Shown here: one piece after another, positions 42,963 to 43,279 of the stretch
Position numbering within the stretch: position 1 is the stretch's first letter
How the letters are laid out: every line of letters begins with the position of its first letter
DNA from: an uncultured Methanosarcinales archaeon
GTDB taxonomy: Archaea; Nanobdellota; Nanobdellia; Woesearchaeales; GW2011-AR9
Direction of reading: 5' to 3'
Assembly: GCA_964344235.1 (NCBI GenBank)
Contig: CAYFMJ010000002.1
Span: 127,601-191,600, forward strand
DNA: 64,000 nt
Notes under the pieces: generated by a model
The model's database searches: none
Seen by the model: the letters and a program-made list of their open reading frames with translations, nothing else
What the model was told of the DNA's origin: nothing
Translations under genes and position numbers: made by a program

Positions 42963-43059
42963 AGTCAGCGGTATCTTGTATTGGAAGTTTTACCACCGAA
43001 AAAGCGAACCAGCTGGCTTTTCTAAGCTAAACTCCCACTAATTTTACATACCACTGACT
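42963..43059 (-). ncRNA. Unknown structured RNA, copy B (BHB-closed three-way junction)
   Basis: TATA at 43079-43086; 11-bp terminal stem; strict BHB UGUA/UACA with AAA and AGA bulges; T-rich tail. Confidence 0.65.
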
Positions 43060-43190
43060 ATGTGCAGAGAATTTTAGTTTATATAATCTTTTGGTACCAC
43101 TTACGTCAAGTAAAAGAAACACCACCCAGTTCTTTCGAGACAGGTTTTATTACCCCGGAGGGTAAACCAGCTGGATTTTCTAAGCTAAAC
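43007..43190. repeat. 26-bp direct repeat, two copies (43007-43032, 43165-43190)
   Basis: AACCAGCTGG(C/A)TTTTCTAAGCTAAAC, one mismatch; contains the palindrome CCAGCTGG. Confidence 0.9.
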
Positions 43191-43213
43191 CTCTTCTTTC
43201 GACACTGGATGGT
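43121..43213 (-). ncRNA. Unknown structured RNA, copy A (BHB-closed three-way junction)
   Basis: TATA at 43237-43244; 10-bp terminal stem ACCAUCCAGU/ACUGGGUGGU; BHB-like UCGA/UCGA with AAG bulges; T-rich tail. Confidence 0.65.
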
Positions 43214-43279
43214 CTGAGAAATGTGAAAGTAGGTGGTATAAAAATCTTTGTTGACACTTGAGAGTTTGGAAAAAAGAAA

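Follow-up and report, generated by a model that had tools for sequence, protein, structure and literature searches.

In the 64,000-nt window analysed here (contig CAYFMJ010000002.1 of GenBank assembly GCA_964344235.1, positions 127,601 to 191,600 of the forward strand), which comes from a Woesearchaeales archaeon with a 1.19 Mb, 96% complete genome, we found two adjacent minus-strand units, A and B, that we interpret as paralogous genes for a lineage-specific structured RNA. This RNA would be released from a hairpin precursor at a motif of the bulge-helix-bulge (BHB) kind and is likely circular and likely oligomeric. We place the probability of this reading at roughly 0.68. The comparison with relatives directly supports the conservation of the RNA within one family, the covariation of its outer helix and of the inner helices P1 and P2, its alternation between a tRNA intron and a free-standing gene, and the maintenance of two palindromes.

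On the minus strand, unit A (window positions 43213-43121) and unit B (43059-42963) follow a tRNA gene at 43420-43280 and precede a second tRNA gene at ~42819-42688. Each unit is free-standing and forms a precursor hairpin. Upstream of it by 20-25 nt lies a TATA-like box, TTTTTATA at 43244-43237 for unit A and TTATATAA at 43086-43079 for unit B, and downstream a T-rich tail. These units, with their boxes, tails and BHBs, are present as an earlier note on this DNA had described them from the letters alone. The note had also claimed that the outer stems differ but stay paired around a near-identical core. Indeed, the stems (10 bp in A, 11 bp in B) are unrelated in sequence between the copies and covary in relatives, and the 26-nt core, which occurs at just two places in the genome, differs at one base only. 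As the note had proposed, we folded the units and searched with a covariance model. Both close as hairpins, with z-scores against dinucleotide shuffles of -3.2 for A and -4.7 for B, and covarying homologues were recovered from 84 of 114 genomes of the same family. The z-scores, together with 104 homologous units from relatives, indicate that units A and B are not chance structures.

The covariance model of the inner RNA (R1) was built from 32 sequences and scores unit A at 75.8 bits and unit B at 66.7 bits. The R1 matches in the Woesearchaeales family to which the genome belongs cover 49 of its 58 genera, at one or two copies per genome. In a sample of the phylum, R1 matched 13 of 16 family genomes versus 1 of 134 others, and in a sample of the order it matched 1 of 149 genomes outside the family. 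Both units are also recovered by blastn in most genomes of the family. A scan of genome contigs with a degenerate pattern returned mostly chance bacterial matches and a few true loci. The two paralogues are distinguishable throughout by P1, which reads GAGGUUU/AAACCUGUCUC in the A type and GGGAGUUU/AAACUUCC in the B type, and A lies upstream of B on the same strand in most relatives. By sequence, A and B are thus assigned as paralogous members of an RNA family that is nearly confined to one Woesearchaeales family. More divergent relatives may lie beyond the reach of the model. Weak but plausible members were seen in another family (L181:1501-1562, genome G112), with the palindromes AACGUU and CCAAUUGG, and in another order (G319:C1:14809-14870). 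None of the five genomes of genus g216, which are up to 97% complete, has an R1 match, and the RNA may have been lost or have diverged strongly there.

The pairing of the precursor was assessed on alignment A3, which holds the 104 homologous units, and on 74 distinct free-standing units anchored on the BHB. In the anchored units, 84.6% of the cells at ten outer-helix positions are paired, versus 48.6 ± 1.8% with shuffled partners and 35-50% when the register is slid by 1-3 columns. Five or six standard pair types occur at each of these positions, and several occur at the positions of the central helix too. A central helix with all four pairs, together with at least seven of the ten outer pairs, is present in 69 of the 104 units. 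The flank-swap control for this detection is weak (19-27 passes versus the 69 observed), and we used the anchored outer-helix count instead. For P1 and P2 on A3, 271 cells are changed on both sides, compared with 78 ± 16 in shuffles, and pairing falls from 84% to 41-56% in slid registers. P2 is a hairpin at 43151-43164 in A (UACCC-UCCG-GGGUA), with its B version at 42994-43006, and shows both-side changes across relatives in five of its six pairs. The inner fold that the earlier note had drawn therefore stands in part. Its GUUU/AAAC stem, with an extension (P1), and second hairpin (P2) covary, but the hairpin AGCU-UAGAAAA(U/G)CC-AGCU does not survive the pair counts, as it is paired in 76.9% of cells versus 77.8% in shuffles, has no compensatory change and has its C-G pair broken in 49 of 102 distinct sequences. 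Consequently, the three-way junction of which it was a part is not supported either.

The BHB of copy B is strict: its central helix is UGUA/UACA, and its 5' and 3' strands have bulges of AAA and AGA, respectively. That of copy A is slightly relaxed and allows two registers, one with UCGA/UCGA and AAG bulges and the other with GUCG/CGAA and AAA/AGA bulges, because UCGAAAG is present on both strands. The form of a BHB substrate, a 4-bp central helix with two 3-nt bulges on opposite strands, is thus present strictly in B and with one mismatch in A. Its flanking helix on the outer side has 10-11 bp that covary in relatives; on the inner side it is weak, with 2-3 pairs before P1. The splicing endonuclease cleaves after the second bulge base. 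From this geometry, the predicted B RNA has 68 nt (42975-43042, minus strand), the size given in the earlier note. The predicted A RNA (43132-43197, minus strand) would have 66 nt in a tRNA-like register (43197-43132) or the 64 nt of that note in its own register (43196-43133), because its size depends on which BHB register is used.

The most telling evidence for excision comes from relatives in which the A-type RNA is not free-standing. In at least 13 of them, it is a BHB intron in the T-loop (position 59/60) of a glycine tRNA, and the host is tRNA-Gly in every case. In L004, L006, L007, L015, L062, L153, L156, L180, L207 and L219, it lies between a T-arm, ...CCGGGUUCGAA, and a 3' acceptor strand, (A)GUCCCGGCCGGUGCA. 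Taking the 67-nt element out at 59/60 leaves a perfect 72-nt tRNA-Gly(UCC) in L156 and L153, and ARAGORN calls tRNA-Gly with anticodon UCC or GCC after removal of the element in L007, L006, L062, L219, L207, L233, L234 and L236. L004, L015 and L180 have the same T-arm and acceptor flanks and are mislabelled by ARAGORN because further introns are present. In the tRNA register, the BHB consists of the T-stem, the central helix UUCG:CGAA and the bulges AAA and AGU. The tRNA-Gly of these relatives can function only if the splicing endonuclease cuts the element out. A location within a tRNA gene, with removal restoring the cloverleaf, is found only for these orthologues, and both units of the window are free-standing. 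No second A-type copy was seen in the genomes with a tRNA-Gly-hosted A RNA, and no tRNA was found to host the B paralogue.

In the window, the gene upstream of unit A is itself a tRNA-Gly(UCC) (43280-43420, minus strand) that contains three BHB introns, one in the D-loop (43400-43370, 31 nt), one at 37/38 (19 nt) and one in the T-loop at 59/60 (43312-43294, 19 nt). ARAGORN calls tRNA-Gly(tcc) at 43420-43280 once the D-loop and T-loop introns are removed. This tRNA keeps the same BHB at 59/60, but its intron there is a 19-nt mini-hairpin where relatives carry the A RNA, and the A RNA of this genome is placed ~65 nt downstream in its own hairpin. L235 has the same layout: its tRNA-Gly is intact, and the cassette that comes after it has retained CCGGGUUCGAA...AGUCCCGG. 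The sequence UUCGAAA...CGAAAGU is retained in nearly all free-standing A copies. Only within a tRNA would T-loop function demand it, and we therefore read it as a fossil T-loop. Acceptor-like 3' flanks are still recognisable in a few free-standing copies (L187, L048). Our reading, in which the direction of change is inferred, is that a 3' half of tRNA-Gly with its intron was probably duplicated; one copy would have kept the tRNA role and lost the cargo, while the other would have decayed to a bare BHB launch pad. As it stands in the window, the tRNA-Gly gene is missed both by ARAGORN and by the Rfam tRNA model at the gathering threshold. Since the tRNAs of the window are interrupted by several introns, ARAGORN reports none at all across it.

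The same flanks could be taken to mean that the element is a selfish or relic BHB intron without a function of its own, with the free-standing copies being decaying duplicates of the tRNA-Gly 3' half. Archaeal tRNAs are known to gain and move introns, the free-standing A copies carry T-loop-like flanks, and the 3' flanks are clearly tRNA-like in L187, L235 and L048. We consider this improbable, however, in view of what has been conserved. Of the host flanks, bare pairing is all that is left, whereas the cargo sequence is near-invariant over 49 genera. There are only one or two copies per genome, in stable synteny and each with a correctly spaced TATA box, and double compensatory changes preserve P1, P2 and both palindromes. 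The absence of the B paralogue from tRNAs also speaks against a relic. Among free-standing units of relatives, 44 of 61 have a TATA-like hexamer 27-33 nt upstream of the outer stem, and the order ZPR1-tRNA-Gly-A-B is maintained in several relatives. In the window, ZPR1, OapC, OapB and a small GTPase gene occupy 43526-45637. We also considered a linked protein gene between A and B, and rejected it because the ORFs inserted there in relatives are mutually unrelated and share no family. Longer variants of the units, with one or two added hairpins between the BHB and P1 and a predicted excised RNA of ~90-110 nt, occur at L117:980-1160, L198, L231, L170:540-680, L200:400-560 and L208:240-400.

The reading of the two units as dedicated genes with a BHB-released product, which the earlier note had proposed, is supported. 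Excision of their RNA by the splicing endonuclease is strongly supported by sequence, because the orthologous RNA is a tRNA-Gly intron in relatives. The covarying BHB and outer helix agree with it, and the genome encodes both the splicing endonuclease (EndA), at G000:C13:3077-3337, and the RtcB ligase, at G000:C6:21402-22718. Archaeal introns are circular once excised, and some are stable and functional (PMC3326292, PMC7714728), among them the tRNA-Trp intron (PMC3326292). In addition, the Haloferax endonuclease also cleaves BHBs outside tRNA (PMC7714728). We suggest that the excised RNA is most likely circularised by RtcB. The predicted back-spliced junction of B joins ...AAUACAAG to AUUAGUGGG, reading AUUAGUG after the junction (68 nt). 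For A, ...CUCGAAAG would be joined to AGAAGAGG (66 nt) or ...CUCGAAA to GAAGAGG (64 nt). In a circular fold of the A sequence of this genome, the ends in the tRNA register (5' AGAAGAGG... and ...CUGUCUCGAAAG 3') come together as a UCUC-GAAA-GAGA hairpin whose stem contains the junction. The 3' tails of many B-type RNAs form UUG-UUCG-CAA.

Activity might instead reside in the linear excised RNA, in a hairpin that is never processed or in the stem that remains, ligated, once the RNA is excised. The circle is a prediction rather than an observation, and the nicked UCUC-GAAA-GAGA helix would hold the ends of the A-type RNA even without ligation. Against this stand the presence of RtcB and the circularity of excised BHB introns where these have been examined (PMC3326292, PMC7714728), and the leftover hairpin is an unlikely product because the outer stems have no conserved sequence. 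We regard a non-circular active form as unlikely, and a ring as the better account of units A and B.

The conserved strand between P1 and P2 contains two self-complementary elements. Element 1 (AGCU) is located at 43183-43186 in A and 43025-43028 in B, and element 2 (CCAGCUGG in A) at 43167-43174 in A and 43009-43016 in B, all on the minus strand. In element 2, the eight core bases CCNNNNGG are self-complementary in 99.5% of cells among 102 sequences. Its central two bases, which are adjacent, read GC in 54, AU in 26, UA in 10, CG in 7, UG in 3, GU in 1 and another dinucleotide in 1, and bases 2 and 7 change jointly to U and A in two sequences. Element 1 is also kept self-complementary, with the variants CGCG, ACGU (as AACGUU), AAUU (as GAAUUC), AUGU and GGCU, and its two pairs are paired in 97.9% and 99.0% of cells. 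Because adjacent bases cannot pair within one strand, the palindromes must pair between molecules, and the RNA most likely forms homodimers or higher oligomers through them. Since two separate dyads do not fit into one continuous duplex, the assembly would be either a dimer with two distinct contacts or a higher oligomer. An A-B heterodimer through the 8-nt palindrome was rejected as a conserved feature, since the A and B palindromes often differ within one genome (L004, L015, L200, L208, L222), leaving homodimers as the conserved possibility. RNAcofold prefers a dimer for both A (-42.7 versus -30.0 kcal/mol) and B (-50.3 versus -35.6 kcal/mol), values to which we give little weight because domain-swapped minima are expected for any hairpin RNA.

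Palindromes of this kind could also be DNA sites for a dimeric DNA-binding protein. CAGCTG, CAATTG, CACGTG and CATATG are perfect DNA palindromes, and the locus adjoins origin-associated genes, with OapB, OapC and the GTPase gene as neighbours. Nevertheless, the asymmetries are nearly all G.U (16 or more cells) and not A.C, which fits RNA-RNA pairing and not a protein site on DNA. In addition, a protein site would not alter both half-sites jointly in many lineages, and the palindromes lie inside an RNA whose surrounding helices covary and move with that RNA into tRNA-Gly introns at other loci. Taken together, these observations make a DNA site very improbable and favour self-association of the RNA.

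The earlier note recognised no known family in the units, and a search of Rfam 15 agrees, with no match over either unit at the gathering threshold or at E ≤ 10; in the whole window, Rfam finds one tRNA and the SRP RNA only. There are precedents for a known class, in that the tRNA-Trp intron of Haloferax bears a C/D guide and BHB-flanked permuted tRNAs and SRP RNA exist. Even so, it is scarcely probable that the RNA is a guide of the box C/D or H/ACA type, a tRNA in permuted or split form, or a piece of the 5S, SRP or RNase P RNA. No C (RUGAUGA) and D (CUGA) boxes and no H/ACA boxes common to both copies were seen, and the sole C/D match, to snoZ13_snr52, extends outside the unit and reaches 20.7 bits, with the cut-off at 47. 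The BHB-bounded segment contains no T-arm (GTTCRA) or anticodon arm, and neither the Rfam tRNA model nor ARAGORN matches the inner sequence. As for guide function in general, the duplex energies of conserved segments with the SSU, LSU and 5S rRNAs of the genome are no better than those of shuffled probes, and the one marginal value (the 3' part of B with 5S) is inside the shuffle range. The 5S, RNase P and SRP RNAs are all present in normal form, so the units do not replace them and are not fragments of them, and the SSU and LSU RNAs are likewise normal. The best-scoring Rfam model for the SRP RNA (52089-52355, minus strand) is the bacterial large SRP, at 69.8 bits; a model of the same clan gives an overlapping match with a lower score. 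A full-text literature search found no description of the RNA of units A and B, nor of any RNA that occurs both as a tRNA intron and as a free-standing BHB gene.

From these observations, we propose that the TATA promoter of each unit would drive a ~95-nt hairpin transcript with a BHB at its base, and that the archaeal splicing endonuclease would cut both bulges to release a 64-68-nt RNA, whose ends RtcB would most likely ligate into a ring. The A RNA would have begun as, or would alternate with, the T-loop intron of tRNA-Gly; in this genome, its cargo would now reside in a decayed T-arm-like cassette, with the 19-nt intron of tRNA-Gly as a stub. The mature RNA is predicted to be a rod of P1 and P2 joined by a conserved 22-nt strand bearing AGCU and CCNNNNGG, and its homodimer or oligomer would probably act as a protein-binding or scaffold RNA. 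As to its role, our best guess is that a stable ring, in dimeric form, provides a scaffold for protein binding.

Several points weigh against this proposal. Cleavage, the ring and the dimer, as well as any function, are predictions. Whichever register is chosen, the BHB of copy A contains a G.A mismatch (one in each). P2 of copy B is weak, with 4 bp of which two are G.U, and the GUUU/AAAC of P1 is invariant, so that GUUU may instead pair with the A-rich linker. R1 has no match in about a quarter of the family genomes, including one whole genus of five. Finally, two separate palindromes cannot share one continuous antiparallel duplex.

The new findings are the alternation between intron and gene, the T-loop preserved as a fossil, and the covariation of two palindromes, which implies self-association. 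Taken to its furthest extent, the interpretation is that a tRNA intron has turned into an independent gene, with the host tRNA half reduced to a splice-signal hairpin that launches a ~65-nt ring of a new functional RNA class forming symmetric dimers or larger assemblies. We put this forward tentatively, at rather less than an even chance. If true, the units would be an archaeal counterpart of the non-coding snoRNA host genes of eukaryotes, and their product would be the first small circular RNA that self-associates and has a gene dedicated to it. The archaeal tRNA-splicing machinery would then have a general part in maturation, serving a dedicated small RNA gene as well as tRNA, rRNA and a few oddities. 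The transition from intron to gene would be caught within one family, from an intron in tRNA-Gly through a tRNA with a pseudo-T-arm cassette to a bare BHB hairpin. With this family, DPANN genomes, most of whose tRNAs already escape standard tools, gain a conserved RNA that is not annotated. The covariation of its palindromes makes a clear, testable prediction of RNA self-association. The natural BHB cassette could also be a compact design for making circular RNA.

The closest known system is the tRNA-Trp intron of Haloferax volcanii and Sulfolobus, a stable circle that carries a box C/D guide in Haloferax (PMC3326292). Both are RNAs of ~65 nt released at a BHB from a pre-tRNA and circularised (the circle being predicted here), and in both the cargo is conserved and appears functional rather than junk. 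In contrast to the tRNA-Trp intron, which lies at 37/38, the A RNA lies at 59/60 of tRNA-Gly, and the A and B RNAs have two self-complementary elements and no C/D boxes. The A RNA is also found outside a tRNA in many genomes, this one included, with its own promoter and a non-coding BHB hairpin as host. The self-complementary elements resemble the dimerisation-site (DIS) loop of HIV-1 in that both halves of a short tract change together and its palindrome is preserved. There is no relation between them in sequence, context or organism, and the RNA described here has two tracts (4 and 8 nt) within ~65 nt, with a dimer that is predicted. An endonuclease and a ligase that act on a non-tRNA BHB to give a circular RNA are likewise known from the processing stems of pre-rRNA, the permuted SRP RNA of Thermoproteus (PMC4731332) and the intron in the 5' UTR of HVO_1309 (PMC7714728). 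In those cases, a known RNA passes through the circle as an intermediate, or the circle is discarded, whereas in units A and B the excised piece itself appears to be the conserved product and belongs to no known class. As in the intron-encoded snoRNAs of eukaryotes with non-coding hosts, the functional RNA would be the intron and the host transcript would be dispensable, and the enzyme families that make metazoan tricRNAs, which are circles of tRNA introns, are the same (PMC4536317). The units differ from both in domain and machinery context, and their host has shrunk to a 10-bp stem.
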